Source of the DNA: an uncultured Planctomycetia bacterium
Lineage (GTDB): Bacteria > Omnitrophota > Gorgyraeia > Duberdicusellales > 4484-171
Reading direction: 5' to 3'
DNA length: 64,000 nt
NCBI GenBank assembly: GCA_964455875.1
Contig: CAYVYZ010000002.1
Coordinates: 655 to 64,654, forward strand
In this document: piece after piece, positions 24,539 through 47,778 of the stretch
How the letters are laid out: each line of letters begins with the position of its first letter
How positions within the stretch are numbered: position 1 is the stretch's first letter
Program-made: the position numbers and the translations under genes
The notes under the pieces: generated by a model
The model's input: the letters and a program-made list of their open reading frames with translations, nothing else
Told to the model about the DNA's origin: nothing
The model's database searches: none

Positions 24539-25162
24539 TTATAAGCCTTCCATTTTAAGTATTCTGCTTTTTTGACCTGAATGTTTATGAAATCCTTGTG
24601 GTATCTTAACAAGGTTACCATACTTTCTTCCCTCGTTCAACTCTGTTTGTTTTGGGAAAACCTCGTGATAACCAAGCCCAACCCTATTTAACCGTGATTT
24701 AACAAGCTTCTGCCCAAACGAAGCTTGAACAGGATTTTTAAAGAATATCCATATATGATAGCCACGCCTACCACTAAATTCAAGTATTCTGGGAAAATCT
24801 TCAAAAAGGTCAAAGATGATGTTGGCTTCTGCCTTGACCCGGCGTAATTCTGCCTCTTCTTCTTTGAACCCACATTTTGGACAAACCCATTTCCAATCCT
24901 TTTCATCAATATAAACTCCTTTATCACGGCACTTCTTACATTTCTTCTTAATATCAATATCAATACAAGCCCACTTAATAGTGTTGTCGTGATTAAGGCA
25001 GTATAGTCCATAAGTTTCTTTTCCTGACATATGATTTTCAATATCCTCAAGAGTTATTGGCCTTCTTTCTGGATAATAATAGCCACCGGGCTGTTGTTTA
25101 GCAAAAACATCTTTCCTATGAACAAAAATGTTAAATATTTCTTCTGCGGATAGCTTTATCAT
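24539..25162 (-). CDS. archaeo-eukaryotic primase-type primase-polymerase (PrimPol-like) with an inserted zinc ribbon
   Basis: CIDIDIKK (DxD), CKKCRD...CPKCG, GRRGYHIWIFF (sGxGyH) and LVKIP. Confidence 0.6.
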   Translation of the reverse strand: MIKLSAEEIFNIFVHRKDVFAKQQPGGYYYPERRPITLEDIENHMSGKETYGLYCLNHDNTIKWACIDIDIKKKCKKCRDKGVYIDEKDWKWVCPKCGFKEEEAELRRVKAEANIIFDLFEDFPRILEFSGRRGYHIWIFFKNPVQASFGQKLVKSRLNRVGLGYHEVFPKQTELNEGRKYGNLVKIPQGFHKHSGQKSRILKMEGL

Positions 25163-25401
25163 CTGTTTAACACCTCTCTCCAATTAATTTTGGCAGGAAT
25201 AAAATGCTTTGGGTCTTCAACAAAATCCCGTATCCAACCACCTTTTAAATCTCCTTCTATTTCTGGAAAATAATATAAAAAACCGTCGTGTTGAACCGTA
25301 TAAATTTTATCCTTAATAAAAAATTTGGAGGCTATACTATTTCCTGGATTAACACATTTCAGTTTTGTGCCTTCTTTATACTTGTGTTTTGGTTTCCACA
25401 T
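25159..25401 (-). CDS. NWK-tail family small protein (member 6)
   Basis: Ends in ...AKINWREVLNR. Confidence 0.45.
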   Translation of the reverse strand: MWKPKHKYKEGTKLKCVNPGNSIASKFFIKDKIYTVQHDGFLYYFPEIEGDLKGGWIRDFVEDPKHFIPAKINWREVLNR

Positions 25402-28592: not shown

Positions 28593-28874
28593 TTATTTTT
28601 TTAACACCTCTCTCCAATTAATTTTAATGTTATGTAATTTTAAGCATCCTTCCCAAAAAGTTTCTCTTTTAAAAACACCTCCAATTTGGAGCTCCTCCAT
28701 ATATTCAAAGTTATCTCTATGACGGAATTTTGATTTTGAGTTTTCCAAGGTTTTTAAAAAATATCCTGACTCTCCGGCACTGATTACTTCTAATATTAAT
28801 CCTTCTACATCACCACTAACTCCTCTTACTATATCACCTACTTTAAAGGTCATTTTCCAAGCACCTTCTTCCAA
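28593..28874 (-). CDS. NWK-tail family small protein (member 7)
   Basis: Has the FKVGDIVRG element and ends in ...IKINWREVLKK. Its 3' DNA is identical over 26 nt to that of member 6. Confidence 0.5.
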   Translation of the reverse strand: MEEGAWKMTFKVGDIVRGVSGDVEGLILEVISAGESGYFLKTLENSKSKFRHRDNFEYMEELQIGGVFKRETFWEGCLKLHNIKINWREVLKK

Positions 28875-29215
28875 TTAATTTGTTCCCTCTCAACCAATTC
28901 CACATCATCAGGATTAACAATACACCAACCTACCATATCCTTACCTTGAGAATATCCGACAGGCAAACTTCTCTTTTCCCTTCTTTCTTTTTCACCAAGA
29001 ATCCCATGTTTAGGAATTGTTAAATTATGAAATCTTTGTCCCCAAGCCAGAACGGTTAATACGCCATTACCTATACAATCCTTACACTTCATTCCATTCG
29101 CGGCGTCACAACCGCTCTTATCGCCTGTAATAATTACCTTGTCTCCGGGTTTAAACTTCATCAACTTCCACCTCGTGTTTGAAATGATATACAGGATAAA
29201 CCGTATCGTCCTCAA
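28850..29215 (-). CDS. NWK-tail family small protein (member 8)
   Basis: Has the FKPGDKVIITGD element and ends in ...QINWKKVLGK. Confidence 0.45.
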   Translation of the reverse strand: MRTIRFILYIISNTRWKLMKFKPGDKVIITGDKSGCDAANGMKCKDCIGNGVLTVLAWGQRFHNLTIPKHGILGEKERREKRSLPVGYSQGKDMVGWCIVNPDDVELVEREQINWKKVLGK

Positions 29216-29414: not shown

Positions 29415-29711
29415 TCAGGGTTTTTTCAAAATAACCTTCCAATTAGTTATTCTAATTCCAACACCTTTCTTAATTATTTTAACAATTACATTGGCATCAT
29501 CGGTAGTAACATAAGAGCTGCCTAATGTATTTCGGCTTTCTTTGTGTTTTTTTATTGCTCCTTCCGGTGTAGGAGCCCATTCTCCCCATAACTCATTCTC
29601 TCCCCTTATACTTTTTATAATACAATAAGCTCTGAAATCCTTATCATTAACATATTTATCATTAACAAATTTCCATCCTATTAAATCTCCAACCGCAAAC
29701 ACCACTTTCAT
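29415..29711 (-). CDS. NWK-tail family small protein (member 9)
   Basis: Ends in ...RITNWKVILKKP. Its 3' DNA (ttccaattagttatt) is identical to that of member 1. Confidence 0.5.
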   Translation of the reverse strand: MKVVFAVGDLIGWKFVNDKYVNDKDFRAYCIIKSIRGENELWGEWAPTPEGAIKKHKESRNTLGSSYVTTDDANVIVKIIKKGVGIRITNWKVILKKP

Positions 29712-32126: not shown

Positions 32127-32504
32127 TTACTTTCCTTGTATTGGTTTTTTCTCGGTTTCACCATAATTACAAACATTACAACCCCAGAAAAATCCTTCAA
32201 CTTTCTTTAGTGGTCTTATGGCTCCTAAGATAAGTCGTTGGTAAGGCGTATTTACCGGGATTTTTTGTAAATACCCATCTTGACACATAGGGCATTTAAT
32301 CCATTCATTCACGAAGCCTGTTTCTTCTGCTATCCTTTCTTCTGGTGTTTTGGGTTTGTCAAATGAGAATTCTGGGTTTGACCCGGCGTCTTTCTGCCCC
32401 TCTATTTCTTCAAAGCTGAACTCGGGTTCAACTTCAAAGCTGAATTCGTGTTTCCTCTTCATTTTTTTTTCACCCCTCAAAGCTGAATTCGGGTTCGGTT
32501 TCAA
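32127..32504 (-). CDS. zinc-binding protein with an N-terminal triple EFSF motif
   Basis: HEFSFEVEPEFSFEE...NPEFSFDKPK, followed by CPMC...CNVC. Confidence 0.45.
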   Translation of the reverse strand: MKPNPNSALRGEKKMKRKHEFSFEVEPEFSFEEIEGQKDAGSNPEFSFDKPKTPEERIAEETGFVNEWIKCPMCQDGYLQKIPVNTPYQRLILGAIRPLKKVEGFFWGCNVCNYGETEKKPIQGK

Positions 32505-32727
32505 AGCTGAATTCGGGTTCTTTCGTTGTTTCAGGCTTCGTTTCTGCTTCTGCTTCTACGAGGGGGCTAATATCTAAATTGAGTATCCCCTCTATTTTTT
32601 GACACACTTTAAGGCCGTGCCCACAAGCTTTATCGCAGGCCTGAGCTAATTCTGGTTTTAGCTCGGTGCCGATATTAATCAAACCGTCTATCGGTGTGCC
32701 ACAGAACAAACAATTCATTCCTGACAT
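32470..32727 (-). CDS. Cys-rich protein with a C-terminal double EFSF motif
   Basis: CLFCG...C..AC, with the tail ...KEPEFSFETEPEFSFEG. Confidence 0.45.
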   Translation of the reverse strand: MSGMNCLFCGTPIDGLINIGTELKPELAQACDKACGHGLKVCQKIEGILNLDISPLVEAEAETKPETTKEPEFSFETEPEFSFEG

Positions 32728-32795
32728 TTTTTCGCCTCCACATTTTATTTTTTTTCTATTAAGAAGGTAGAAAAACTACTATTTAAATCTTTCGC

Positions 32796-32826
32796 AAAAC
32801 CAGCCGCTACTACTAAATAGTGATAC
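32796..32826. repeat. isolated copy of the CTACTACTAAATAGTGATA iteron motif
   Basis: gccgctactactaaatagtgatac matches the unit of the array at 35060-35295. Confidence 0.4.
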
Positions 32827-33085
32827 TTCACTACTCTATAATGATGACATAATAAAGGTGTATTAATTTATTAGTGGTTATAGCTTTTTACTACCATTAA
32901 GTATTAAAAATTTATATGGGTAAGCTATATCAGGAGTATATCAAATTCGCATTTCCGAGCTGTTCCTGGGGTGTTCCCACTATACCCTGACTCAAACTAC
33001 CTATTTACAGGAAAACCCTTTAAAACCCACGGAAACAAGCAAACCGAAAACAATAACTATCACTAATACCGTATATTGTCTTTAT

Positions 33086-33245
33086 TAAGAAAGGTGGGAA
33101 ATAAGTTGGATAAGCGGAATAAGGTGGAAAAAAGGTGAAAAAAGGCGGAAATAAGTGAAATAACGGATAGCGGGATAGCGGAATAGCGGGGGATGGCGGA
33201 ATGGTGGGGTAGCGGAATAATGGATAGCGGATAGCGGAATAAGGT
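33086..33245. repeat. polypurine tract of about 160 nt built from degenerate 8-10-nt tandem repeats (GGATAGCGG / GGAATAAGGTG)
   Basis: The + strand is almost exclusively A/G: ...cggatagcgggatagcggaatagcgggggatggcggaatggtggggtagcggaataatggatagcggatagcggaataaggtg. It is followed directly by a pyrimidine run, tccctcctcgcctcactccc. Confidence 0.6.
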
Positions 33246-33320
33246 GTCCCTCCTCGCCTCACTCCCAACCCTAAACAATAAAAACAGGTGTTACCACTAC
33301 TACATAATAAAGTTAGTGTT

Positions 33321-33410
33321 TGGGAAAGGCGCGGCGCGTTGGGAGGCGCCGCAGAAAAATTATAGCCGCGCCGCAAAGTTTTTTTATAGGCGCGCCGCAG
33401 AAAACTGTTA
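33321..33410. repeat. GC-rich palindromic box GGCGCGCCGCAGAAAA in three or four copies
   Basis: The copies are aggcgccgcagaaaaa, agccgcgccgcaaagttttt and aggcgcgccgcagaaaac, plus an inverted ggcgcggcgcg. Confidence 0.55.
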
Positions 33411-33500
33411 GCCGGAGAGATTTTCATATTTATGCCTATGATTATGATTGTGCCCACGGTTTTTCATATGGTTTTCCGATTTTTTTCCAAACGCCGTTCA
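33411..33500. promoter_or_regulatory. AT-rich stretch between two GC-repeat clusters, a candidate DNA-unwinding element
   Basis: ttttcatatttatgcctatgattatgattgtg...ggttttccgatttttttcc lies between the GC boxes on both sides. Confidence 0.3.
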
Positions 33501-33504
33501 TAGT

Positions 33505-33685
33505 GCTGGGCGCGGCAGAGAAAGATTGGGACAGGCGCGGCGCTGAAAGGCGCCAGTTCGTCAGGACCGAACCATCTAATCCATCCATCTATAGGCCAGA
33601 ATGACATCAGTTCAGGGAAAAGGCTCGGTCCACCTCGGCGCTGAAAGACGCCGGTTCACACGCAGCCTGTGTGAACCCGCCAAAC
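33505..33685. repeat. second GC-rich cluster of hairpin-forming repeats
   Basis: ggcgcTGAAAGgcgcc and cggcgCTGAAAGAcgccg (both with GAAA loops), the 10-bp near-complementary pair ggaccgaacc/ggctcggtcc, and the perfect palindrome ttcacac-gcagcct-gtgtgaa. Confidence 0.55.
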
Positions 33686-33790
33686 TCTGTCCTTAACCCA
33701 GATTTCACTAAATCTGAGTCCCTTTATTCTCTTCTTACATATCTTACATTTCTTGTTCTTCTCCCTTATTAATATTTGTTCTTCTTTCAT
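33659..33790 (-). CDS. small Cys2-His-Cys mini-protein (43 aa) ending inside the GC palindrome
   Basis: I translated it by hand: MKEEQILIREKNKKCKICKKRIKGLRFSEIWVKDRVWRVHTGCV. Confidence 0.25.
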
Positions 33791-34078: not shown

Positions 34079-34147
34079 TCTTATCACGCTCCAGACTTTT
34101 ATTTTTTCGTTGTTATAAAAATAAAATAAAAAAATAAAAAAGTTTTT

Positions 34148-34717
34148 TTATTCAAAGTTAAAAGTTGTTTCTGGCTTGACTTTATAATAATTATAAAGTC
34201 TTTCTCTACTTGATTTATTGTTGAAGTTGTTGTTTATTACTTTTATAGTCTTTTCTGCGTCTGGTAATGGCTTACCAGATTTTTTAAGTTTCTCATAATA
34301 CTCGTTGTATTCGTTGATAAATCGCTGTTCTTTCTCTGTTAAGTCTTTTGTTGTGTCTGTTCTCGCTGGATTGGTTTCTGTTTCTGGTTTTCTTGGTTTT
34401 CGCTGGTATCCAACAGATTTTAGTATTCCACATTCAAAATCGTATTTGTTCGTTGCTTTAAAGTTTAGTGCTTTCATTAGATACTTAGCTTCTACTGGTG
34501 TAAATTGTGCGTTTATTGTTATCTCTCCAACGATACCAGAACGTTCTCGTGGTTTAAGTTGTTTATTCCATAATATACTTTCGTTTGTTTTTGCGTCTTT
34601 TAACTCGTATAGTTTTTGCTCAGCCATTTTATTTTTGCTCCAATATTCTTTTTTTAAGTCTATTATTAACCAATAAGCTTTTAAGCCATAAGAAAGTTTA
34701 AAACTTATGGCTCTCAT
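34148..34717 (-). CDS. hypothetical protein flanked by repeat arrays; its C-terminus is FNFE
   Basis: 189 aa (the start may be at the internal MAEQKLYEL). It ends in ...KPETTFNFE, and non-coding iterons lie on both sides. Confidence 0.4.
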   Translation of the reverse strand: MRAISFKLSYGLKAYWLIIDLKKEYWSKNKMAEQKLYELKDAKTNESILWNKQLKPRERSGIVGEITINAQFTPVEAKYLMKALNFKATNKYDFECGILKSVGYQRKPRKPETETNPARTDTTKDLTEKEQRFINEYNEYYEKLKKSGKPLPDAEKTIKVINNNFNNKSSRERLYNYYKVKPETTFNFE

Positions 34718-35059
34718 TAAGCTTATTAATTATTAAATAAGTATAATGCTACAACATATAAAGCTTATTTTTTCTGTTTTAAACCATATAAGTTTTATAC
34801 TCTTATATGATTAAGCTTTATGGTGTATTATGATAACAATTTTTAAGTTGTTATCGTTTGGTGTTGTTTTTCGCTGTTAATAAGTGAATTCTGTAAATAA
34901 AACTTTTTGTTGTTTGTTTTCGCTGGTGTTTTTGTTTCATACAACGAATTAATGAAAGCACATATTTAAATGTTTCGTTTTGGGCTGTATATAGATATAC
35001 ATAAAGCTATACTAAAAACTTTGGAGTAGTGACAAAAATCAGTTTATAAATATTTCGTT

Positions 35060-35295
35060 ATTTGTCACTACTAAAAAGTAATAACAAAGGCGCTACTACT
35101 ATATAGTGACAACAATATTGATACTATTAAAGAGTGATAACAAAGGCGCTACTACTAAAGAGTGATAACAATAAAGTAATTACTAAAGAGTAATAACAAG
35201 GCGTTATTACTAAATAGTGATAACAGAATGTCGCCATTTCAAAATAGTAACACACAACAATACTATAACCACTACTATATAGTGATAACACACAT
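35060..35295. repeat. iteron array of about nine degenerate direct repeats with a ~28-bp period
   Basis: The unit is (AGGCG)CTACTACTAAAGAGTGATAACAA. Copies start near 35064, 35093, 35128, 35150, 35178, 35205, 35241 and 35270. They abut one another with no unique spacers. Confidence 0.6.
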
Positions 35296-35433
35296 AACAA
35301 TATGAGAATAAGACATTATTCGTATAAACGGCGTTTAGAATAGTTTAATTACTATCTGGTAGTGATAAAATATACCTTCCCGAAATCTCGGGCTAAAATT
35401 TAAGAAATAACTGTGTTATGCACTTATTATTTT

Positions 35434-36480
35434 TTATTCAGAACTAGTTATTATCTTTCTTATTCTCTTAGCAGTGTTCTTTATGTGTTCCTCGGCTTCT
35501 TCGTCTGTTTTATTAGATACTTGGCTTACATACCTTTTTAGGTTAGCATAATGTAGTGGTAGTAGGTGTTTTGTTGTTTCTTCCGGGGTGTAATCATTGT
35601 TTTGTGCCGCCGCGATTAGTGTTAGAGGCCAGGTTCTTCTTCTTAGCGGGTTGTAGTTGTTTTTTTCTTCTAGGTTTTTTGTGTTCGGGATTAGTGTTTG
35701 TTCTTCTTTTTTCTGTGGTTCGCCTATAATGGTTGGTGTGATTACAGGGCCTAACCGCGGAGAGTGTTTGCGCATAACACGAAGGAGTGTGTTGTTCACT
35801 TCGTGGAACATCTGGGAGAGGTCTGTCGCTGGGTCTTTAACATTATGAATTTTGCTTCCGAGATGAGCCTGGGCTAACTCGAAGTTGTTAAGCAATGCGT
35901 TAAGAGTCATAAAAACATCTATTCCGAAGCCACGAACATCTCTGTCCCAGGGTAAAGACATCAAGTATTCGATGAATTTAACACTAAGTCCGAACTCTCC
36001 TCCGATGGGCTGACGGACGTTTATCCCGTAAAAACCGTAGATAAGAGGATAAACAATATGGTTGGTGATAGTCGCGTCAAACTTGTGCCTGGAATAAAGA
36101 GGGAGAACAAAATCGGCTCCGGCTAACACCGGCTCACAAAGATTCCTCACCCAAAAAGGCTTAATGCTGGTTAAATCAGCATCGACAACAATCACTGCCC
36201 TTGGGTGTAACTCCAAAACCAGGCTGAACAAATTAAAGAAGTTATTGCCTTTCCCCTTAACACCAGGCTCAGAAGATAAGTACTTCTTAGGAATACCTAA
36301 GGTGTTAGCCTTCAAAAACTCTTTACGAGTATTATCAGGACTACAATTATCAACGTTAACAATAAGAGAATTAAGATTAGAAAAATATTTGTTAAGCCCA
36401 ACAGCAACTACTTCTACCACACGCCTAATAGAGCTTTCTTCACAATAACTGGGAATACCGACGATAATATCAACACCCAT
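35434..36480 (-). CDS. glycosyltransferase, GT-A fold (GT2/GT81-like)
   Basis: DIIVGIPSYCEE...LIVNVDNCSPDNT...AVIVVDADL (the DxD motif). Confidence 0.6.
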   Translation of the reverse strand: MGVDIIVGIPSYCEESSIRRVVEVVAVGLNKYFSNLNSLIVNVDNCSPDNTRKEFLKANTLGIPKKYLSSEPGVKGKGNNFFNLFSLVLELHPRAVIVVDADLTSIKPFWVRNLCEPVLAGADFVLPLYSRHKFDATITNHIVYPLIYGFYGINVRQPIGGEFGLSVKFIEYLMSLPWDRDVRGFGIDVFMTLNALLNNFELAQAHLGSKIHNVKDPATDLSQMFHEVNNTLLRVMRKHSPRLGPVITPTIIGEPQKKEEQTLIPNTKNLEEKNNYNPLRRRTWPLTLIAAAQNNDYTPEETTKHLLPLHYANLKRYVSQVSNKTDEEAEEHIKNTAKRIRKIITSSE

Positions 36481-36544: not shown

Positions 36545-37168
36545 TTAAATGATTTTATCAGCTAAACCAAGTTTAACTGCTTCTTCGGCGCTCATATAAT
36601 AATCGTATTTCATTAACTCCCTAAGCTTTTTTCTAGTGAACTTAGGATGCTTTTTACGTATCTGAGCTAGATAAATGTTTTCCATGAGCTCGTTTATACG
36701 ATTAGTTTCTTCTGCGGCCCTAACAAAATCTTTAGTATGAACCTGGTCAGTAGCTTCTGTTCCGTAATGAATCATAACCCTGCAATTCTTAGATAAAACT
36801 CTCTCTTTACAAGCCTGTAAGATTATGCTTCCCATACTCCTACAACGACTATAAGCAATCATTTTAACAGGGCTCTTAAGAGTTCTGATGAACTCATAAA
36901 TAGCCATACCTGCGTCCCATTCACCACCATGACTATTCCAAATAAGAGTAATCGTCTTATGGTTTATTTGGTCTAACAAGTATAATCCTTTAATAAGCTG
37001 TTCTGCACTCCAATCATTCACTTCCATGCTTTCACCAGTACCAAGACCTAAATTAATACTGCTGTTAGCACCATAATAAATCGTTCTGGTCTTATAATCG
37101 ATGTTATATTCAAAAAAATACGCGATGTCCGTTTCAACCAATTTTCTTTTTACCATTTTAACACTCAC
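36545..37168 (-). CDS. ClpP-like serine protease (S14 family)
   Basis: ITLIWNSHGGEWDAGMAIYEFI...SRCRSMGSIILQAC...VMIHYG...MSAEEAVKLGLADKII. Confidence 0.65.
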   Translation of the reverse strand: MSVKMVKRKLVETDIAYFFEYNIDYKTRTIYYGANSSINLGLGTGESMEVNDWSAEQLIKGLYLLDQINHKTITLIWNSHGGEWDAGMAIYEFIRTLKSPVKMIAYSRCRSMGSIILQACKERVLSKNCRVMIHYGTEATDQVHTKDFVRAAEETNRINELMENIYLAQIRKKHPKFTRKKLRELMKYDYYMSAEEAVKLGLADKII

Positions 37169-38820
37169 CTTATTAATCCCATCTGAATCTTCCTAACCAA
37201 ATCAGATTCGTGTTTACTTTCACCAAATCCTTTATAAGGGTCAAAAACACCTCTACCGCCTCCCTCCGTAATAGCGAAAGGAACACTAGCGTTTTGGGTG
37301 GCTCTGTTAGCAAGAGCTAAAGCCATAACACAATCATCGTAAGCACCAACGCTTTCATACTTGTAATTACCTGCGGGAGTTTTCAACTCACAAAACTTAC
37401 CAAGTTCTTCCTCAATTACTCGCATCACATTAATACTTGTTTCGTCTCCTTGGGGAAAAATAATTTGTTCGTGCTCAAAACTAATAATAAGAAACTTGAT
37501 AAGATGTTCTTTTTTCTGACCCTTACCACCAGTAACAAAACTATCAATGTTAAGATTGTGTTTATCAACTAGTTCATCAATTAAGTCTTGACCAAAATTG
37601 TTTTGTTCAACCAAGATGTAAGGATGATTAAATCTTCTGCTAATCTCAGCGATTTTTTTTGCTTGTTCACTGATTTTTAAGCCTTTCTCGCGCCAAACAT
37701 GAACTATTTGTTTTTCGTTAGTAATAGTATTAAACGCCATGATTATCATAACAGAATAATCTGCGCTGGCACTACCACTACGAGCAACGTCAACACCACC
37801 AACAAACACCCAGTTTTTATCTCTCTTATCACTTTTTGGAAGCAAACAAATGTCTTTTCCCTTGCTCTTAGCAGGTTTTATAAGCCAGTCTGGGAAAAGA
37901 CTAGCGTCTCTACTAAAGAATTCTAATTGATACTCCCTAGAAAACTTAAGAGGGCCCATAGATAAACGTTTCTGCATTAAATCATTCCAAGTGAACCTAT
38001 CAGGACACTGAATAATTCTTTTCTCATAATCAAGAATAGCTGGGTATCTACGTATCACCCAGACACTTCCCTGTTTAACACGATTAGCTATAGTAGTAAA
38101 AATGTCTGTGTCTGTCTTAGGAGTACCAACAAGAATCATTTGTCCTTTACGATTTAAAAGCATTGGGTCTAATACCATATCAATATAATCTTCTATTTCT
38201 CTATCACTAAGCCTATTATCTGTTCTAAGAATATCATCGATGACTATTCTGTCAACATGCTGACCAAGAATCTCACTACCAATCCCTTTCACAAGGATAT
38301 AACCACCATTATAACCAATTGTTTCAACAGCCCATTTATTAGGATTCTTCTTACTGATTAACCACTCATTATTCTCGATAATAGACTTTAATTCTTCTAA
38401 TATACGGTTTGCTTGTTCTTGACTAGCACTAACAATTATAATCCTCCTATATTTAAATAAGAACATATCATAAATACTAAGAATTTCCGAGAAGAAAACA
38501 GATTTTCCATGTCCCCTAGCACAAAGAATAGCTAAATATCTGTTTTTCTTTACAAGTTTATCCCAAGAACGAAGAAGTTTGTTAAACCTAAAAGGTGCAG
38601 GAAAACCAATATCTGTTAGGGGGCCTATAATGAACTTACAGAAAAAATATAGACCTTTATCCTTATCATAACATAATTCTAATATTGACTTAAAAAGAAA
38701 AGCGTGTAATGTGTTCTTATCATACCTACTAAGTAAATTCTTGTAAGAGAGTTCTAGGTTTCCAGTTTTTTCAACTACCCAATCACAATAATCTTTGTAA
38801 ATATCCTCATACGTTCTCAT
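37165..38820 (-). CDS. terL: terminase large subunit
   Basis: Walker A ILCARGHGKSVFFS and Walker B RIVIDDIL. The nuclease domain has VGGVDVARSGSASADYSVMII and YDDCVMALALA. Confidence 0.85.
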   Translation of the reverse strand: MRTYEDIYKDYCDWVVEKTGNLELSYKNLLSRYDKNTLHAFLFKSILELCYDKDKGLYFFCKFIIGPLTDIGFPAPFRFNKLLRSWDKLVKKNRYLAILCARGHGKSVFFSEILSIYDMFLFKYRRIIIVSASQEQANRILEELKSIIENNEWLISKKNPNKWAVETIGYNGGYILVKGIGSEILGQHVDRIVIDDILRTDNRLSDREIEDYIDMVLDPMLLNRKGQMILVGTPKTDTDIFTTIANRVKQGSVWVIRRYPAILDYEKRIIQCPDRFTWNDLMQKRLSMGPLKFSREYQLEFFSRDASLFPDWLIKPAKSKGKDICLLPKSDKRDKNWVFVGGVDVARSGSASADYSVMIIMAFNTITNEKQIVHVWREKGLKISEQAKKIAEISRRFNHPYILVEQNNFGQDLIDELVDKHNLNIDSFVTGGKGQKKEHLIKFLIISFEHEQIIFPQGDETSINVMRVIEEELGKFCELKTPAGNYKYESVGAYDDCVMALALANRATQNASVPFAITEGGGRGVFDPYKGFGESKHESDLVRKIQMGLIR

Positions 38821-39029
38821 TGTTCTGTCTTTTTCTTTTTTGAAGTTTCCTTCTTTTTCTTTTCCTCTTCCTTTGTTTTTATATTAATAAATGGGTTGTC
38901 ATAATCTTCGATATTATCCAAACCAATTTTTTCAATAAGACATCCTAAACAATATGTGAATCTTTTACCTCCTCCCATTAATCTCATCACCCATGTATTA
39001 AAGTGTCCACATTTATTTTTTATTGCCAT
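38817..39029 (-). CDS. small zinc-ribbon protein upstream of terL
   Basis: CGHF...CLGC with a K/E-rich tail. It may be a terminase-associated protein. Confidence 0.3.
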   Translation of the reverse strand: MAIKNKCGHFNTWVMRLMGGGKRFTYCLGCLIEKIGLDNIEDYDNPFINIKTKEEEKKKKETSKKKKTEQ

Positions 39030-40095
39030 TTTTTATTACCTCTTTCATTTCCATTATTCTATGAATGAATGTGTGTTTGGTTAAAACCGTTCTCTGTCCA
39101 TTCCTACCAATTTTCTTACATAATTCTTCGTTTTTCAAAAGAAAGTCTATCATATCTATTAAACCATCTTCATCGTAATAAACTAATAGGTCTTCTTCTC
39201 CAGTAATTTTTTCTCCTTTCTTATTAATCTTAAACATATTTTCCATTCCTTTACAATAGGTGGTTAAATATAGACCTCCTGCGCACAAAACTCTATAGAG
39301 TCTTGCGCTGAAACCAAGCTCTATGTCTGGGTCTTGGTCTATACCAAGATTAATAATGGAAGCTTCTACAACCATACTATGAATAAGATTTATAGCTTGT
39401 TTGTTTGTATGAACTGTTTTTAATATTGGTGGTAGTAACTTCCATTCACACACAACAGGTCCCCAGATTTTCAGGTCAAACCCCTCTTCAGCCAGTCTTG
39501 TAAGTATTTTTACTCTATTAGAGTGTTGTTTTAAGAAACCAATACTACCAATAAACGTTACGTCAGAACCATACTTCTTCCTTTGATAAGCGTTTAAATA
39601 AACACCTTTATTCAGATTAGGATAACACCCCTCGTCTAAATACCTTACGTTTTCAAAACCAGCCTCTTTGAGTTTATCAGCCACTCCTTTTAAACTACAA
39701 AAAAAGTAATCATAAAATTTAATAGCTTCAAAAAACTCTGTTTGTTCCCAAATTGGTTTATCAACAAGATACTTATCAAAGAACCAATTAACTATTTTTG
39801 CTTTTGGAAATTTTTCTCTTAATTTTTTTAGTGTGTCCATATGAAGCTCTAATCCTTTAAAAACAATGATTAAATCATAATCTGTTTCAAAAACATCGAT
39901 TTCTTTTAAAATACGTGGTTGAGCATTAAATATTCCTTCTTTATTAACAATAACTCGGATATCTATACCATCAACTCTATAACCGCTTTCTTGAAAAGAT
40001 AGTGCTATATACCACGCAGTCTGCCTATCTTTGAAGCTACCAAGCAACAAAACATTCTCTTTTTCTTCTTTTTTCTTGTTCATGACCACCACCAA
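39013..40095 (-). CDS. glycosyltransferase, CgeB-like GT-B family
   Basis: SARLYRVLCAGGLYLTT...HTFIHRI. Confidence 0.5.
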   Translation of the reverse strand: MVVVMNKKKEEKENVLLLGSFKDRQTAWYIALSFQESGYRVDGIDIRVIVNKEGIFNAQPRILKEIDVFETDYDLIIVFKGLELHMDTLKKLREKFPKAKIVNWFFDKYLVDKPIWEQTEFFEAIKFYDYFFCSLKGVADKLKEAGFENVRYLDEGCYPNLNKGVYLNAYQRKKYGSDVTFIGSIGFLKQHSNRVKILTRLAEEGFDLKIWGPVVCEWKLLPPILKTVHTNKQAINLIHSMVVEASIINLGIDQDPDIELGFSARLYRVLCAGGLYLTTYCKGMENMFKINKKGEKITGEEDLLVYYDEDGLIDMIDFLLKNEELCKKIGRNGQRTVLTKHTFIHRIMEMKEVIKNGNKK

Positions 40096-41020
40096 TATCT
40101 TTTTTTAATTCTTCTGCTGTAACAGTTGCAGTTCCAAGCTTCCCAACAACGATGCCTGCGGCATGATTAGCAAGTATAGCACTTTCTTCAAGAGACAAAC
40201 CAGATACTAGTGCAAGAACTAATCCTGCTACAAAAGTGTCTCCGGCACCAGAAACATCATAAACTTTCTTTGCTTTAGTAGGAATATGTGTGTGTTTTTT
40301 TGTGTGTTTATCAAATATGGAAAGGCCTTCCGGTCCTCGTGTAACTATGACATTCGAATTTAATTTTCTTAATAGTTTCTTACCAATTTGTTTGATATTA
40401 TCTGCTCCACACATTTCTTTTGCTTCCTTCAAATTTGGTGTTACAACAAAAACTTTTTTAAACCAATTAGTATGTGCTGGTGTTGGGTCAACCACCACTT
40501 TCATCTGATTATTCTTCAACTCTTTCATAAGTCTTTGTGTTATCATGCCTTTGTTATAATCAGAAACTATTATCATATCAAAGTTGTTTTGCTTAGAGAA
40601 CTTTATAATCCCATTAATTAATTTTCCTGGTAAAGGATTACATACTTCCCAATCAATTCTTAATAATTGTTGTCCGTTAGCCATAGCTCTTGTTTTCTTA
40701 ATGGTAAGATAATCTTCTCTCTCTATCAGGTTTGGTATAATGTTGTGTGTTGCCAATAATTTTAGTAACATATCTTTTTCATTATCATTTCCTACTTGTC
40801 CTATAAGAGTGCACTTTCCTCCAAGGGAAGTGATGTTGCTAGCTAAATTTGCGGCGCCACCAGCACGATAATCTACTTTCTTAACATTTATAACCGGAAC
40901 AGGAGCTTCTGGGCTGATACGATTAACATCTCCAAAAAGATATTCGTCCACCATTAAATCTCCAATAACCAAAATATTGGCTTTATTGAACTTATTAATT
41001 GCTCCTATTAATTTTTTCAT
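40037..41020 (-). CDS. sugar kinase of the pfkB family, resembling D-beta-D-heptose 7-phosphate kinase (HldE/RfaE domain I)
   Basis: ILVIGDLMVDEYLFGDVNRISPEAPVPV and DVSGAGDTFVAGL. Confidence 0.7.
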   Translation of the reverse strand: MKKLIGAINKFNKANILVIGDLMVDEYLFGDVNRISPEAPVPVINVKKVDYRAGGAANLASNITSLGGKCTLIGQVGNDNEKDMLLKLLATHNIIPNLIEREDYLTIKKTRAMANGQQLLRIDWEVCNPLPGKLINGIIKFSKQNNFDMIIVSDYNKGMITQRLMKELKNNQMKVVVDPTPAHTNWFKKVFVVTPNLKEAKEMCGADNIKQIGKKLLRKLNSNVIVTRGPEGLSIFDKHTKKHTHIPTKAKKVYDVSGAGDTFVAGLVLALVSGLSLEESAILANHAAGIVVGKLGTATVTAEELKKDIGGGHEQEKRRKRECFVAW

Positions 41021-42096
41021 TTTCTCACTATAGACTCCATTATTTTAAGCATAGCTCTGGCAATATTGTCAAAACTACCGGTTTCTCTACCATGCACAAC
41101 ACCTTGTTTAAGTCTGTTTTTTATCACATCTCTCTTGAGAGACCTTACATAAGCTATTGTTTCTGCCAGACTAAACGGATTAGTGACATCACAGTAAAAA
41201 GGAAAATCACCATATAAATCATGAAGTATTTTAAAATCTCCACAAATAACGGGTTTTCCAACAAACATCCCTTCCAGGGGACTAAGACCAGCAATATATT
41301 CGGTGTTCTGTGGATATAAAAGCATCGCGCTGTTTTTAATAAGTTCGAACTTCTCTTTCTGGGTTATAAGGCTTTTGTGTTCAAATGGAATGTTGTTCTC
41401 TTCACACACTTTCTTTATAAGTTCTAACTCCCCCCTATCTCGTCCAATACAAAAATATTTTAAATCTGGTTTTAATAAAGCTAGGGCTTTGGCTACCATT
41501 AAACAATTCTTTTTTGGTGTGAGCCTGGAAATAGTAATAACGTAATCTCCTTCTATATCTAACCCAGCTCCTTCATACTCCGGAAACAAATCTGTTCCAG
41601 CAGGAATCACATGAGTATCAGGGAACCAGTGTTTAGTATACTTATAATATTCGTCCCTAGCTACATAAGTATTAAAAATTAGTGTGTCTGCTTGTTTTAA
41701 AACATCAAACCAAAAAGACCATTGTCGCATTCTCCACCTTTCTTCTTTCATAGCATCTGTTGGGACATCAAGTATCATTATTCCCCATGGTAATTTATAA
41801 ACTCTTGCTAGATAAGCTACTACCGGTGATATCGGTGTGTGTGAACCAAATATTAAATCAAACTTTTCTCTAGCAAACAAATCAAGAGTCTTACTATGCA
41901 TTTTCGCAGGCACAAAAAACTTCTCGTAATCTATGTTAATCCTTGTAAGATTTTCATGTGGCTCTATAGGATTATCTTTATCATATTCGTCTAGTTGTTG
42001 AACAACAGCGGTAACTTTATGACCCGCTCTACAAAAAGCGTTACAAAGCCCAATCACAAAATTCGCGCTTTCAGCACCAAAATATAATATGTTCAT
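41017..42096 (-). CDS. glycosyltransferase family 4-like (GT-B)
   Basis: GLSPLEGMFVGKPVICGD. Confidence 0.6.
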   Translation of the reverse strand: MNILYFGAESANFVIGLCNAFCRAGHKVTAVVQQLDEYDKDNPIEPHENLTRINIDYEKFFVPAKMHSKTLDLFAREKFDLIFGSHTPISPVVAYLARVYKLPWGIMILDVPTDAMKEERWRMRQWSFWFDVLKQADTLIFNTYVARDEYYKYTKHWFPDTHVIPAGTDLFPEYEGAGLDIEGDYVITISRLTPKKNCLMVAKALALLKPDLKYFCIGRDRGELELIKKVCEENNIPFEHKSLITQKEKFELIKNSAMLLYPQNTEYIAGLSPLEGMFVGKPVICGDFKILHDLYGDFPFYCDVTNPFSLAETIAYVRSLKRDVIKNRLKQGVVHGRETGSFDNIARAMLKIMESIVRK

Positions 42097-43970
42097 TCTA
42101 ATACCTCTTCAAACGATTTAACAATATAATCTAGGTCTTCCTGATTCAAGAATTGGTGGCAACCGATATAAAAAGTTTGTCTACCAATAAATTCTGCTAC
42201 TGGCAACTTATTTTCATATTCTTTTTTTAAATGAGCTAAGGATGGCATATCGAGTGGTAAACAACCATACATAGGCCTTGTTTCAATTCCTTTTTCTTCA
42301 AGAGCTTCCCTAAACTCCGCCCTGCTAATCACGTTCTTATCTTTAATCACTATTGGATAACCAAGGTAAGCAATATCCTTATCATATTTTGGTAATTGTA
42401 TAATACCCCTATCTTCATATTTTTTCAGTCGTTCATTAAGGTATTTTACATTATCGTTTCGTTTCTTAATAATATCGTTTATGGTTTTGAATTGTTCAAA
42501 AGCTAATCCTGCGGCGAACTCTGTAGACCTATAATTACCACTAATCATATCGTGATAATATCTTGGGTGTAAATCCCTTTCATCTCTAAACATTTTATCC
42601 TTAAAATATTGTTCGTCCTCTTTGAAATAACAGGACACCCTACCATTAGATTTAAGCTTGTCATAAATCCTGTATAAATCCGCATTATTAGTGTTGATTG
42701 TTCCCATCTCACCACATTGTATTGTGTGAGCTATGAAAAAAGAGCAAGCTGACCATAACCCCCAACTACCAAGCTTTTTGCCTTTATAAGTAGTCCCGTA
42801 ACCCTGACAATTATCCTCTATTACAGGAATACCGTGTTTATCAGCTATCTCTCTAATTTTATCAATTTCGCATGGTATTCCCATAATATGAACCGGCATA
42901 ACTGCTTTTATATCTGGGTGCTCTTTAAGAGTTTTTTCAAGAGCTTCCGGGGACATACCAAGAGTGTTTTGGTCTATATCTACAAACACTGGTTCGTTGC
43001 CTGTTAAATAAATGGCGTTAATAGTAGCCATATAAGTGAAGGGAGTAGTGGCTATTTTCCCTTTATTCTTAAAAAATTCGTTCATGGCTCTCAAACCAAC
43101 TATTAACGCTGATGTGCCAGAATTAGTAGTAGTACAATAATTTGTGCCGATATACTCTGCCCACAAAGCAGAGAACATCTCAGAGTATTTTCCTTCAGAT
43201 ATTCTTCCAGAATCAAGTATTTCGTTAATCCTATCCTTTTCTTCTTGAGTAATTTTTAAATCACCGGTTGGGATTCTATAAGACATTTTCTTCTTCCTCC
43301 ATAAATAAATTGTTTCTTTTTGAGTAGTATAATAATAAATTTTATCAAAGTTTTTTTCCATATAATCTTCGAATTCTTCTTTTACAAGTAAGTTCTTAGC
43401 TAAGTGTTGTGGTGTGTGCGCACCAACACTAAACATCATACCAGTTGTTAACATATATCCTCTTGGTTTCAATAACGATGATAAGTGTTTCATAGTTTCA
43501 AGTGGATTATCTAAATGCTCTAAAACATCTATGGTCATTATCACATCGTATTTTAACTTATTCATCATTTCTTCATCAATAAACGAAACCTGTTTTTTCA
43601 TATGTTTACAACAAAACTTAGCGAAATCTTGTGTTATTCCCGGAACATCATAATAGTAAACATTATGATTATCTGATAAAGCTATGCTTATGGCTCCTAT
43701 CCCACCACCAAAGTCTAATATATCAAGCCCTTTACACAAACCATTTATCGGGTGAATAACATTGTTTACTCGTTTATCATCACTAAAACCTAACAAACCA
43801 AATATTGTCGTGTCTGACTTCTCATAATATTTTTCTTTACCAAGCTTCCACCAATCTTCAACAGCTTTTTTTGGGTTTCTCCTAATCTTTTCATTTACTT
43901 CAAAACTATCTAAGTTGAAGAACACTTCTGCAAGTTTTTTCATAGTTCGAATCATATTTTCTCCCTCCAA
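42093..43970 (-). CDS. bifunctional SAM-dependent methyltransferase (N-terminal) and DegT/ArnB-type PLP sugar aminotransferase (C-terminal)
   Basis: LDFGGGIGAISIAL...YYDV is the class I MTase motif. RISEGKYSEMFSALWAEYIGTNYCTTTNSGTSAL is the aminotransferase part. Confidence 0.65.
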   Translation of the reverse strand: MEGENMIRTMKKLAEVFFNLDSFEVNEKIRRNPKKAVEDWWKLGKEKYYEKSDTTIFGLLGFSDDKRVNNVIHPINGLCKGLDILDFGGGIGAISIALSDNHNVYYYDVPGITQDFAKFCCKHMKKQVSFIDEEMMNKLKYDVIMTIDVLEHLDNPLETMKHLSSLLKPRGYMLTTGMMFSVGAHTPQHLAKNLLVKEEFEDYMEKNFDKIYYYTTQKETIYLWRKKKMSYRIPTGDLKITQEEKDRINEILDSGRISEGKYSEMFSALWAEYIGTNYCTTTNSGTSALIVGLRAMNEFFKNKGKIATTPFTYMATINAIYLTGNEPVFVDIDQNTLGMSPEALEKTLKEHPDIKAVMPVHIMGIPCEIDKIREIADKHGIPVIEDNCQGYGTTYKGKKLGSWGLWSACSFFIAHTIQCGEMGTINTNNADLYRIYDKLKSNGRVSCYFKEDEQYFKDKMFRDERDLHPRYYHDMISGNYRSTEFAAGLAFEQFKTINDIIKKRNDNVKYLNERLKKYEDRGIIQLPKYDKDIAYLGYPIVIKDKNVISRAEFREALEEKGIETRPMYGCLPLDMPSLAHLKKEYENKLPVAEFIGRQTFYIGCHQFLNQEDLDYIVKSFEEVLE

Positions 43971-44920
43971 AAATCAAGCACCTCTTTTATTGTGTCGGCA
44001 ACAGAAATTTCTGGTTTCCAATCTGGGCACACCGATTTAAACTTAGTGGTGTCTGGCACTTGCATATTAACATCTTTTGGTCTTAATAGTTTTTCATCAA
44101 CAATTACTTCTATTTCTCCCTTTTTAGGACTAAGAGAAATCATGTGTGCTAATACATGACCAACCATCCAGGTTTCTTCACCCCCAATATTATAAGCTTC
44201 ACCCCACTTACCATTATCTGTGAGCATCCAATAAGCTCTGACACAGTCTTTCACATTCATAATGGTTCTATGACTCTTAAGATTGCCAACATAAATTTTT
44301 GGTTCTTGCAATCCTTTCTCTATTTTAGCTATTTGTTTAGCAAAAGCAGAAACGAAAAAGACATCACCACGCCTCTTACCAGTATGAGTGAATGCCCGTG
44401 TAATAACGGTTTTTAAGCCATAACATTTATGATACATTCTTCCGGCTAGGTCTTGCCCTACTTTACTAAGAGCATATGGTGATAATGGGTCAAAAGGCTC
44501 TGACTCAGATGTTGGTGTGTTAACTTGATGACCGTAAACCTCTGAAGACGAACAAATCAATATGACAGCGTCTTTATTATATTTATTCACCGCCTCAAGT
44601 AAATTGATTGTCCCGATAATATTTGCTTCTATAGTAGCACTAGGAGCACTGAAAGAAGCAGGAACATAAGACTGTGCGGCTAAATGAAATATTTTGTTAA
44701 ACGAATACTCTTTGAACAATCTCTCAACATTATGGGAGTCTGTTAAATCACACTCAACCCAAATTATCCTATCAGATTTGATATGTTCCACGTTTTTCAT
44801 ACTACTAGTATGTGCTCGTTGCATACAACAAACCATATAATCAGGATGGTTCTCAAGAATGTATTCTATTAAATGTGAACCAACAAAACCATTAGCTCCT
44901 GTTATTAAAACTTTTTTCAT
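43952..44920 (-). CDS. NAD-dependent sugar epimerase/dehydratase (extended SDR)
   Basis: MKKVLITGANGFVGSHL and the YxxxK region. The start was trimmed to MKKVL. Confidence 0.7.
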   Translation of the reverse strand: MKKVLITGANGFVGSHLIEYILENHPDYMVCCMQRAHTSSMKNVEHIKSDRIIWVECDLTDSHNVERLFKEYSFNKIFHLAAQSYVPASFSAPSATIEANIIGTINLLEAVNKYNKDAVILICSSSEVYGHQVNTPTSESEPFDPLSPYALSKVGQDLAGRMYHKCYGLKTVITRAFTHTGKRRGDVFFVSAFAKQIAKIEKGLQEPKIYVGNLKSHRTIMNVKDCVRAYWMLTDNGKWGEAYNIGGEETWMVGHVLAHMISLSPKKGEIEVIVDEKLLRPKDVNMQVPDTTKFKSVCPDWKPEISVADTIKEVLDFWREKI

Positions 44921-45062
44921 TATAAATCCACCCATTCTTTTTCTACAAATATTTGTGCTTTTGGGCATCTAGAACAACCTCTTGAGTTGCCCATCTTATC
45001 ATACACCCAGTGATGAAAATTAAAAAAACAATCATACCTATGTAGCTTCATAGTTTTTCTTT

Positions 45063-45353
45063 TCATTCTATAATATCGTATGTTTTTTCAAAAATTTCTT
45101 TATCACAAGGATATTTTTCTCCATTTACTCCAAACATTAAATAGTCTCCTGGCTTCCCAAAAACAACACCTTCCATAGTAGTTACTTTAAAACCTCCTGG
45201 AAAATTTATTTGTACCGCTTTAACTACAATAGGTTTTTTTCTACACTTAATAATATCTTTTTCTTCCAACTTATCTAATGTTATTTCATCTGCATTAAAT
45301 AGCTCCATCTTAATCTCTTCCTTTAGCTTTAAAAATTTTTGGGTCTTGGTCAC
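45063..45353 (-). CDS. hypothetical protein
   Basis: 96 aa. Confidence 0.35.
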   Translation of the reverse strand: MTKTQKFLKLKEEIKMELFNADEITLDKLEEKDIIKCRKKPIVVKAVQINFPGGFKVTTMEGVVFGKPGDYLMFGVNGEKYPCDKEIFEKTYDIIE

Positions 45354-45810
45354 CCGCTGACTCAGTACCGTTTATTAATCCAACAATTTTATCTTCTAGT
45401 TTCTTTCTCAGCTTAATCCTATTGTTATTAGCACTTCTAGAGGCGTCCACCAAAAACTTAACCCTGTCAGGACTTGGTTTTGGTAATTTATTTAATTCTC
45501 TGAGCTCATATTCTGAAAACCAAATCTTTAAATGAGATATTATAAAAGCATCAATTAAAAAACTAAAAGACTCAACTATGTTTCCGCCTTCCTCAGGAAT
45601 ATTTATTCCTTCTTTTTTTAATAACTCTAATAATGTAACTTCTATCTCGTTCTTCAACTTAGCTCTTCTATCATTAGATTCTCTAGCATGTTTTACAATC
45701 TCGGTGAAATCTGTCCCAGTATTATACTGACCTAATTTTAACTCATAAAAGAAATTTTCTGTGTCGGCATCAATTAATAACTCTATTAAATCTAATAATT
45801 TTTTAATCAT
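45310..45810 (-). CDS. hypothetical protein
   Basis: 166 aa. Confidence 0.35.
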   Translation of the reverse strand: MIKKLLDLIELLIDADTENFFYELKLGQYNTGTDFTEIVKHARESNDRRAKLKNEIEVTLLELLKKEGINIPEEGGNIVESFSFLIDAFIISHLKIWFSEYELRELNKLPKPSPDRVKFLVDASRSANNNRIKLRKKLEDKIVGLINGTESAGDQDPKIFKAKGRD

Positions 45811-46495: not shown

Positions 46496-46496
46496 T

Positions 46497-47770: not shown

Positions 47771-47778
47771 AGTCTCAC

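Follow-up and report, generated by a model that had tools for sequence, protein, structure and literature searches.

Protein-binding repeats located next to promoters, origins and centromeres are well known. The sopC site of plasmid F (bound by SopB), parC of R1 (ParR), incA/incC of P1 (RepA) and the origin of phage lambda (O protein) all consist of direct repeats abutting one another without unique spacers. In sopC and in the lambda iterons each repeat carries an inverted repeat bound by a dimer, and in parC and P1 incC the repeats adjoin, or overlap with, the promoter from which the adjacent operon is expressed. The family of repeats (FR) of Epstein-Barr virus (EBV) oriP, which is bound by EBNA1, consists of many tandem repeats of about 30 bp with one palindromic dimer site each, and is both a transcriptional enhancer and an episome-maintenance element. 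In archaea, Lrp-type regulators (Ss-LrpB, Ptr2) bind several palindromes spaced by about 30 bp and wrap DNA, and small proteins of archaeal viruses (F55 at tandem sites of SSV1, SvtR of SIRV1, AvtR of AFV6) bind repeated sites in virus promoters and oligomerise along the DNA. Here we describe an array of 28-bp repeats in a 64,000-nucleotide stretch of contig CAYVYZ010000002.1 (hereafter the window, to which all coordinates refer unless a locus is named). Although arrays of this kind are familiar, its motif is new, and the virus group that carries it has no cultured relative.

The segment 35067-35225 is the single outstanding array reported by Tandem Repeats Finder in the window. It is detected at a period of 28 bp (5.7 copies, 72% matches), but scores better at a period of 56 bp (2.9 copies, 83% matches, score 220). 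The 20-mer ACTACTAAAGAGTGATAACA, searched with up to three mismatches, has seven matches, all on the plus strand and between 35067 and 35290, against 0.03 expected from shuffled sequences (seven matches were reached in 0 of 100 shuffles). With a position weight matrix (PWM) derived from the array copies, the search yields 29-37 bits at 35064, 35092, 35120, 35148, 35176, 35203, 35268 and 32806, and no further site above 15 bits in the 64 kb, so that the repeat has no comparable match elsewhere in the window. On the gene strand, which is the minus strand, a unit comprises the 22-bp dyad GTTAYYACT-N4-AGTRRTAAC and a linker of 5-6 bp. The dyads of the core array score 16-18 of 18 arm positions, and the linkers alternate between a GCGCCTT type and an AT-rich type, which generates a 56-bp super-repeat of paired units. 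The array and its outlying copies are as follows.

35064-35226, no strand: core array of six abutting 28-bp units (Tandem Repeats Finder, motif search, PWM, dyad scores)
35064-35085, 35092-35113, 35120-35141, 35148-35169, 35176-35197 and 35203-35224, no strand: the core 22-bp dyads (dyad scoring)
35230-35251, no strand: degenerate unit, GTTACTATTTTGAAATGGCGAC on the gene strand, matching the dyad at 14 of 18 arm positions; kept in relatives L004 and L007
35268-35289, no strand: well-kept dyad, GTTATCACTATATAGTAGTGGT on the gene strand, lying 65 bp away from the core array (PWM, motif search)
35348-35369, no strand: looser outlying dyad-like site, TTATCACTACCAGATAGTAATT on the gene strand (repeat search, PWM)
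35018-35036, no strand: partial inverted copy (repeat search); kept in L004
32806-32827 (strong) and 32827-32848 (weaker), no strand: isolated copy made of two adjacent dyads; kept in L004

An original prediction, made from the letters of the window, had described about nine degenerate units of some 28 bp abutting without unique spacers. Both points agree with what is read directly in the sequence, namely six core units and three to four looser copies out to 35369. The isolated copy that it reported is indeed present (PWM, 32806), but it is actually a double copy (32806-32848), located 2.2 kb from the array at another promoter box. The dyad symmetry within each repeat unit is a feature absent from that prediction.

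Three other descriptions of the units were rejected. A CRISPR array does not fit because the units abut, and their 5-6-bp linkers are themselves repeated instead of being unique spacers. A 57-aa open reading frame (ORF) running through the array (35127-35300, minus strand) is not credible, as the 28-bp period shifts the frame at each unit and no homologues were found. Finally, the units are not TATA boxes or promoter duplications, the alternative that the original prediction had itself put forward: their 4-nt centre is AT-rich in the window, but contains GC in relatives.

These relatives (metagenome loci or contigs, numbered with an L) were collected in three ways. The 159-aa product of the first gene downstream of the array led to the near-identical contigs L006-L008 and to the close relative L004, whose first-gene protein and terminase large subunit (TerL) are 89% and 97% identical to those of the window, respectively. 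A scan of metagenome contigs with a TerL profile provided 42 more loci with TerL 57-77% identical, which originate from anoxic lakes and from sediments of soda lakes, marine sites or hydrothermal sites. Lastly, L262 and L266 came from a hidden Markov model search with the first-gene protein (family P0004-P0013). The dyad recurs in at least eight divergent relatives, each time in the gap after the terminase block, as clusters of 2 to 13 or more sites with 27-32-bp spacing. Such clusters are shared with relatives whose TerL is 57-64% identical and whose first-gene protein identity is as low as 34%, and dyad matches number 64 in the real loci versus 7 in shuffled sequence. The clusters are distributed as follows.

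L136/L140: five sites with 27-32-bp spacing and one additional site
L002: four sites
L115: three sites
L125/L126: two to three sites
L119: two to three sites
L262: four sites arranged as two pairs
L266: at least 12 sites between 85 and 467, with 27-30-bp spacing, a 57-bp super-period and a TATA-like box adjoining the array end

When the 45 sites from eight non-redundant lineages are pooled, information is found only at dyad positions 1-9 and 14-22. Arm positions mostly reach 0.6-2.0 bits (0.4-0.6 bits for the outermost right-arm positions 20-22), while the four central positions and the linkers stand at about 0 bits. On these alignments, information restricted to the arms is the signature of a dimer-binding site, and not of TATA duplication or simple slippage. 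The array is thus best read as a cis-acting cluster of sites for one sequence-specific, dimeric and oligomerising DNA-binding protein. The original prediction of a binding-site array accordingly holds in its general form, given the inverted 9-bp arms and the conserved position of the clusters in viruses with TerL 57-64% identical; the repeats are also conserved in related genomes, and their absence there was part of what that prediction had named as refuting it. Outside these loci, IMG/VR scans with the unit TACTAWWNAGTRATAACA and with the ideal dyad returned single chance-level matches and no clusters, and the dyad is not enriched near radA in 80 loci of DPANN archaea (2 weak matches in 225 kb).

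The number of sites could alternatively result from neutral tandem duplication, i.e. from a single ancestral operator pair amplified by unequal recombination, with the extra copies being functionless. The 56-bp super-repeat does point to growth by duplication of a two-site unit, and the arrays of the window and of L004, in gaps showing about 90% nucleotide identity, differ by exactly one 27-bp unit, which L004 lacks. Yet the arms are conserved while centres and linkers have diverged, and in the distant L266 a two-site organisation of the same kind exists independently, over at least 12 sites and with a 57-bp super-period. As L266 shows, the long array with a two-site sub-unit is not a private expansion of the window lineage, and we regard neutral duplication as the least probable of the explanations weighed here.

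What the clusters are attached to can be judged from the genes and boxes around them. From 1 to 49.8 kb, every ORF is encoded on the minus strand; a plus-strand portal and capsid module begins at 49950. Leftward from about 49.8 kb, the minus-strand order is a sugar-modification/glycosyltransferase cluster, a 70-aa zinc-ribbon gene, TerL, a ClpP-type prohead protease and a family 2 glycosyltransferase (GT2). After GT2 come the 0.8-kb gap with the array, many small ORFs, an ATP-dependent ligase and an archaeo-eukaryotic primase (AEP), and further along a Dna2/Cas4-type nuclease, RadA, an RFC-like ATPase and ribonucleotide reductase. The 14-mer GAAACATTTAWATA, with at most one mismatch, occurs six times in the window, always on the gene strand and never on the plus strand. 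Three of the six boxes, including that of the GT2 gene start, are followed by an ATG after 21-23 nt, and dyads accompany two of them, the first two of the block, the other four having no dyads nearby. Such an arrangement, in which a BRE-like (TFB recognition element) GAAAC immediately precedes the TATA box TTTAWATA and start codons follow at leaderless-mRNA distance, is the usual appearance of an archaeal promoter.

37165-38820, minus strand: TerL, terminase large subunit (gene annotation)
35434-36480, minus strand: GT2 glycosyltransferase (gene annotation)
34963-34976, minus strand: BRE/TATA-like box GAAACATTTAAATA; in the gene direction, it lies 88 bp downstream of where the core units end (consensus search)
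32780-32793, minus strand: second BRE/TATA-like box GAAAGATTTAAATA, 13 bp downstream of the isolated dyads; kept in L004

Because of its archaeal consensus and the 21-23-nt spacing to ATG, we infer that the 34963-34976 box is the promoter of an early block; the early timing of the block and its transcription start are presumed from sequence. The block headed by this box runs unidirectionally over about 35 kb, with small genes first and replication and recombination genes next. The second box precedes the ATG of an 85-aa ORF (32470-32727) by 52 nt.

In all six of the window, L002, L004, L115, L125 and L136, the last dyad ends 39-140 bp upstream of the GAAACATTTAWATA box (about 190 bp from cluster to box in L262); in L119, no BRE/TATA box was identified after the dyad cluster. 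By contrast, the distance from the TerL end to the first dyad varies from 1.2 kb (L125) to 1.6 kb (L002), 1.8 kb (window and L136), 3.1 kb (L004) and 3.7 kb (L115), with varied genes inserted between. As the distance to the box is narrow, the distance to TerL variable and some TerL relatives devoid of dyads, the position of the clusters argues for an element linked to a promoter and not for a terminase site. What is observed directly is that the sites exist, that they are dyads, that they are conserved and that they keep a fixed position with respect to the box.

These distances bear on the hypothesis of a packaging or terminus signal at a T7-like late/early junction, in which the dyads would be sites for the small terminase subunit, perhaps the 70-aa zinc-ribbon protein. 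The cluster always follows TerL by 1.2-3.7 kb, in the interval where the late operon has ended and the early promoter is yet to come, and the conserved zinc-ribbon gene precedes TerL in 31 loci. Nevertheless, the TerL distance varies with the unrelated genes inserted, a second pair of sites is found at another promoter 2.2 kb off, and L001, L122 and L265 have the conserved TerL and zinc-ribbon genes without any dyads. Moreover, assemblies read straight through the gap and no terminal repeat was found at the ends of the L001 contig. We thus consider a packaging role very improbable.

The explanation that we favour, tentatively, is an upstream regulatory array (operator or enhancer) that would drive or switch the early promoters via a multi-dimer complex. 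With a dimer every 28 bp (about 2.7 helical turns), neighbouring dimers would presumably touch one another and wrap or stiffen the DNA, and the functional sub-unit appears to be a pair of sites, hence the 56-bp super-repeat. Lying upstream of the 34963-34976 box, the array would act as an enhancer or activating array, or as a switch of early transcription, with the multi-dimer nucleoprotein complex recruiting or occluding TBP/TFB. A two-site version is located 13 bp upstream of the next promoter of the block. The promoter status of the box, the earliness of the block, the direction of regulation and the nature of the binder are all presumptive in this scheme. Among the three kinds of binder named in the original prediction (initiator, partition protein or regulator), the association with promoters favours a regulator.

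In most relatives checked, the dyads lie upstream of BRE/TATA boxes and never overlap them. Palindromes in front of BRE/TATA usually activate archaeal transcription, and those covering or following the TATA box repress it. A comparable geometry is found for TrmBL1 of Pyrococcus furiosus, which activates from a palindromic site upstream of BRE/TATA and represses from a downstream one (PMC4706686). The Thermococcales glycolytic motif (TGM) recognised by TrmBL1 and the dyad described here are both palindromic with an uninformative centre, both lie upstream of BRE/TATA, and half of the arms here read TATCAC/GTGATA as in TGM. However, the TGM consensus is TATCAC-N5-GTGATA (PMC4706686), whereas the spacing here is N6, most arms read TACTAC and the arms are longer (9 bp). 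Based on this spacing and on the TACTAC arms, we rejected the identification of the array as TGM. TrmBL1 and Lrp systems also have 1-3 sites versus 9-13 here, the probable host belongs to DPANN and not to Thermococcales, and no TrmB or Lrp homologue was detected in scans of the window ORFs. Regarding the viral regulators, the sites in SSV1, SIRV1 and AFV6 overlap the TATA box or the transcription start, number 2-4 and are bound by virus-encoded ribbon-helix-helix (RHH) proteins; no RHH protein was detected here.

Several observations weigh against a regulatory array. Nine to 13 sites exceed what a promoter operator normally needs, and are more typical of centromeres, iteron copy-control arrays and the EBV oriP FR. 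No dyads are present in L001/L127, L122 and L265, despite TerL and zinc-ribbon genes conserved equally well. The AT-rich stretches and the other tandem repeats in the gaps of relatives make up a composition typical of origins, and these repeats are lineage-specific (14 nt six times in L125, 16 nt four times in L120, 11 nt four times in L119). Promoter activity, transcription start and early timing are deduced from sequence, and neither helix-turn-helix (HTH) nor RHH, Lrp or TrmB domains were found among the window ORFs by Pfam. The roles proposed here (regulation, origin, centromere and packaging) are not mutually exclusive in known systems.

Downstream of the 34963-34976 box, the following features are found between the presumed transcription start and the first gene of the block.

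34628-34940, minus strand: AT-rich non-coding leader of about 310 nt, from the inferred transcription start to the 159-aa gene (folding, alignment)
34851-34940, minus strand: leaderless 29-codon ORF opening the leader; frame not kept in L004
34861-34878 and 34910-34927, minus strand: two CAGCGAAAA(A)CAA(A)CA boxes, the same as the GTTGTTTTTCGCTG boxes (repeat search)
34832-34855, minus strand: conserved hairpin with an 8-bp stem and the loop CUUAAAAA (covariation in L004, L262 and L264)

The ATG of the 29-codon ORF is located 22 nt after the TATA box in both the window and L004, but alignment with L004 and L007 reveals a 1-nt indel that shifts the frame between window and L004. In L002, an ATG at the same distance from the box opens a 193-aa gene, and CAGCGAAAACAAACA follows the ATG in both the window leader and this gene. 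The GTTGTTTTTCGCTG boxes correspond to this element; noted as duplicated in the original prediction, they are both present, with a third copy inside the 159/189-aa ORF (34390-34407); the CAGCGAAAA box after the leaderless ATG is also found in L002 (inside the 193-aa ORF), L004, L136 and L264. The leader ends with a GGAG Shine-Dalgarno-like site, and the 313 nt between the ATG and the 159-aa gene fold at z = -5.4 relative to shuffles.

The palindrome gataacaa-N8-ttgttatc is found at 34832-34855 as originally described. L004, L262 and L264 have other stem sequences but the same loop, yTTAAAAr, at the same position: six of the eight pairs show compensatory changes, 100% of cells are paired, and the lone single-sided change gives a G.U pair valid only in gene-strand RNA. 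The four hairpins were registered by eye, as RNAalifold on a MAFFT alignment of the four leaders did not align the hairpin. On this comparison, the palindrome is best read as a hairpin in a transcribed leader and not as a protein-binding palindrome, which would in turn support transcription from the box.

A promoter firing into such a leader is also what a transcription-primed origin would look like, as exemplified by T4 oriF/oriG and the T7 primary origin. Alternatively, the dyads could be iterons for a viral or host initiator, like the four dyad-symmetric iterons of the lambda origin, which bind dimers of O protein. Several features would suit a replication origin of either type: the tandem, dyad-containing 28-bp repeats adjoin the kilobase with the lowest GC content of the window (0.281); the partial inverted copy at 35018-35036 and the first unit form a 19-nt inverted repeat, 89% complementary, around a 24-nt AT-rich spacer; the gaps of relatives hold several tandem repeat families; the gap lies at a border between gene modules, upstream of the replication-gene block; and a putative strong promoter fires into a long, non-coding and AT-rich leader. 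On the other hand, no Orc1/Cdc6, Rep or primase-helicase gene was found next to the array, the nearest replication gene (the AEP primase) being 10 kb off, and the first gene does not co-vary with the motif. The number of copies ranges from 2 to 13 or more, and some relatives have no dyads. GC skew is uninformative as an origin test, since all genes from 1 to 49.8 kb are on one strand. In our opinion an origin is unlikely, albeit worth keeping in mind.

The tandem repeats in the gaps of relatives include AAYATATAGTYT (six copies), ATATTGGYTAATCTAT (four), TAAGCGT-containing 11-mers (four, common to L119 and L262) and CCTTTATAAAC (four), and they are located at 4440-4530 in L125, 14105-14170 in L120, 13795-13840 in L119, 285-330 in L262 and 2680-2790 in L265. 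The control region thus appears to be a mosaic of several repeat families. Its upstream edge, at 35379-35421, is probably the end of the preceding transcription unit and contains two elements.

35411-35421, minus strand: CATAACACAG box immediately following the stop codon of GT2; recurs at this place in L004, L119 and L125
35379-35392, minus strand: small hairpin cccgagatttcggg after the CATAACACAG box (direct reading)

Each of these genomes has one to three copies of a CATAACAC(AG) box directly behind the final late gene (window 35411-35421; L004, about 9221-9231; L119, 13685-13730; L125, 4143-4215). The box may serve in termination or processing, or be bound by protein as a second kind of site.

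One candidate binder named in the original prediction is the product of the first gene of the block.

34148-34627, minus strand: first gene of the block, 159 aa in public gene calls (189 aa if read to 34717)

The original prediction had rightly located an ORF here, but its 189-aa reading is too long according to public gene calls, which start at Met31 (34627), and the N-terminal extension contains a stop codon in L004. The family to which it belongs evolves fast; in its members, an A-D-T/K-T linker connects an N-terminal domain with the motif LKPRxxSGxxGEITxNxQFT to a C-terminal domain of 3 helices. No Pfam, PHROGs or PDB sequence match was obtained for the 159-aa protein. A first AlphaFold model was poor (mean pLDDT, the per-residue confidence score, of 58.6) and gave no Foldseek match, whereas a 13-sequence alignment led to a confident model (mean pLDDT 80) with an N-terminal beta-hairpin and two helices, a disordered linker and a three-helix C-terminal bundle. 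Neither sequence nor fold shows any Rep-like, winged-helix or Orc similarity, and the predicted fold has no DNA-binding match. The family profile detects the first genes of L004, L262, L264, L265 and L266, but misses those of five dyad-bearing relatives (L136, L125, L002, L115 and L119), while the L265 member has no dyads upstream. As the conserved motif does not track the gene, the latter is unlikely to own the array as a private operator, and its product, proposed as a binder in the original prediction, is probably not one, judging from this lack of co-variation and from the modelled fold. The two zinc-ribbon mini-proteins proposed alongside it fare no better, as they occur only in the closest relatives. 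Pfam searches with 51 small and about 55 larger window ORFs found no HTH, RHH, Lrp, TrmB, ParA/B, Rep, Orc or integrase domain, and PHROGs searches with ten uncharacterised ORFs of the window returned nothing. The binder would then be either a host factor or a viral protein that escaped recognition, and whose gene may lie outside the window.

Two ORFs of 85 and 125 aa at 32127-32727 (minus strand) carry repeated PEFSFE motifs, and the C-termini of the 159-aa family (P0004-P0013) are mostly FSF, FxF or LF. These motifs may represent a shared short linear docking motif for a host or viral protein.

The same gene inventory bears on a centromere or episome-maintenance site, in which a ParB-, ParR- or EBNA1-like dimer would coat the array so as to segregate or tether an episomal virus genome, with repression or enhancement of the neighbouring promoter as a side effect. 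Tandem repeats with one palindromic dimer site each recall sopC (12 repeats of 43 bp) and the EBV FR (about 20 repeats of 30 bp), the copy number is high and variable, and the array lies directly upstream of a promoter, as does R1 parC. The window ORFs include no integrase match, which is compatible with an episomal lifestyle. Nonetheless, no ParA/Walker-type ATPase, ParM, ParB or ParR/RHH match was found among the approximately 100 ORFs of the window, beyond which the genome extends, and nothing indicates a temperate or episomal virus. The plasmid and phage systems encode their binder next to the array, whereas here the neighbouring gene does not co-vary with the motif, and their periods are 11, 19-22 or 43 bp instead of 28 bp. 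A centromere consequently seems quite improbable to us.

A broader variant would make the array a counterpart of the EBV oriP FR or of F sopC, coated by an oligomerising dimer and serving episome maintenance in DPANN together with the early promoter, as a decoy for a global regulator of the host, or in positioning host chromatin on the incoming genome. An archaeal histone dimer covers about 30 bp and a tetramer about 60 bp, close to the 28-bp and 56-bp periods of the array. EBV is a eukaryotic virus and the likeness to its FR is architectural; no EBNA1-like protein is evident in the window, and no separate dyad-symmetry replicator element was identified there. We hold this variant to be rather improbable.

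To our knowledge, almost nothing is known of the early infection programme of tailed viruses of uncultivated archaea. The locus offers a 22-bp dyad consensus, a promoter box and a structured leader at the head of an early block. The dyad can be used as bait, by which a transcription or maintenance factor could be identified for the first time in this virus group, and as a marker of the late/early junction in fragmented metagenomic contigs. Were the array a replicator or a centromere and not an enhancer, no element of that type would have been defined before in a virus associated with DPANN.

The gene content of the window identifies it as part of an uncultivated archaeal tailed virus, based on a Rad51/RadA match (255 bits), an RFC-like lid domain/clamp loader and the AEP primase; the ATP-dependent ligase was also counted in favour of an archaeal host. 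The closest cellular matches of RadA (52-59% identity) are overwhelmingly metagenome-assembled genomes labelled Woesearchaeota/Nanoarchaeota, which makes a DPANN host likely. Many "uncultured Methanosarcinales" third-party annotation (TPA) bins with RadA in the same 52-59% range may be mislabelled. The following loci were used in these comparisons.

6416-7357 and 3577-4488, minus strand: positions to which the comparison of the viral RadA refers, together with loci L155-L234

Overall, the genes suggest a tailed virus of DPANN archaea carrying RadA, RFC, AEP primase, ligase and ribonucleotide reductase. No similar DNA was found among 50,697 phage records, TerL is at most 27% identical to that of cultured phages, and a scan of GTDB genomes with TerL gave no match. 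A tRNA search of the window was negative, and Rfam returned nothing at gathering thresholds on the whole window and just two sub-threshold chance matches at E<=1 on 32.6-35.5 kb.

Other features of the window and its relatives deserve mention. A GC island at 33290-33690, conserved in L004, starts with GTGAACCGRCGTC, which is common to L002 and L136 and is fused to the right arm of a dyad site in L002, L136 and L125. The island contains repeated GGCGCC-TTTCAG-CGCC hairpins and GCGGCGCG boxes, and has counterparts at 14965-15110 in L002, 4556-4690 in L136, 5229-5350 in L125 and 15850-16200 in L119. It has no Rfam match and no credible ORF, with folding z-scores of -1.7 and -2.2; possible roles include those of an origin, a site of processing or a non-coding RNA. 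Next to it, about 170 nt at 33090-33260 show strong strand asymmetry, being purine-rich on the plus strand with 8-11-nt repeats (GGATAGCG about nine times, AAGGTGGAAAA about three times). This stretch is far shorter and different in L004, and a short GGAATAGCAGAGGATAGCG version is found in the L115 gap in the opposite orientation.

Gene content in the early region also varies. L007, near-identical to the window, has an extra 85-aa gene (L007 1192-1449) between the 159-aa and zinc-ribbon genes, at the position of window 34088-34147, where L004 carries another set of small genes. As read from these alignments, the early region turns over by gene-sized insertions, each with a GGAG-N7-9-ATG start context. 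Between 16612 and 29711 (minus strand), at least eight small proteins of 77-121 aa share the C-terminal motif (I/V)xNW(K/R)x(V/I)(L/I)K(K) (ORFs 16612-16884, 17152-17457, 18816-19157, 24277-24510, 25159-25401, 28593-28874, 28850-29215 and 29415-29711), and look like a paralogous family scattered over the early/middle block.

On the late side, the 10-kb sugar-modification cluster located between the structural module and the terminase (39013-49422, minus strand) is unusually large for a virus. It encodes several GT1/GT4 glycosyltransferases, a PfkB kinase, a DegT aminotransferase-methyltransferase fusion, a GDP-mannose-dehydratase-like epimerase and an FkbM methyltransferase. Finally, TerL ORFs are far longer in some relatives (L002 8021-12082, 1353 aa; L113 1506-4346; L114 4054-6873), and the matches of the window TerL to these long ORFs are split, a pattern consistent with intein insertions.

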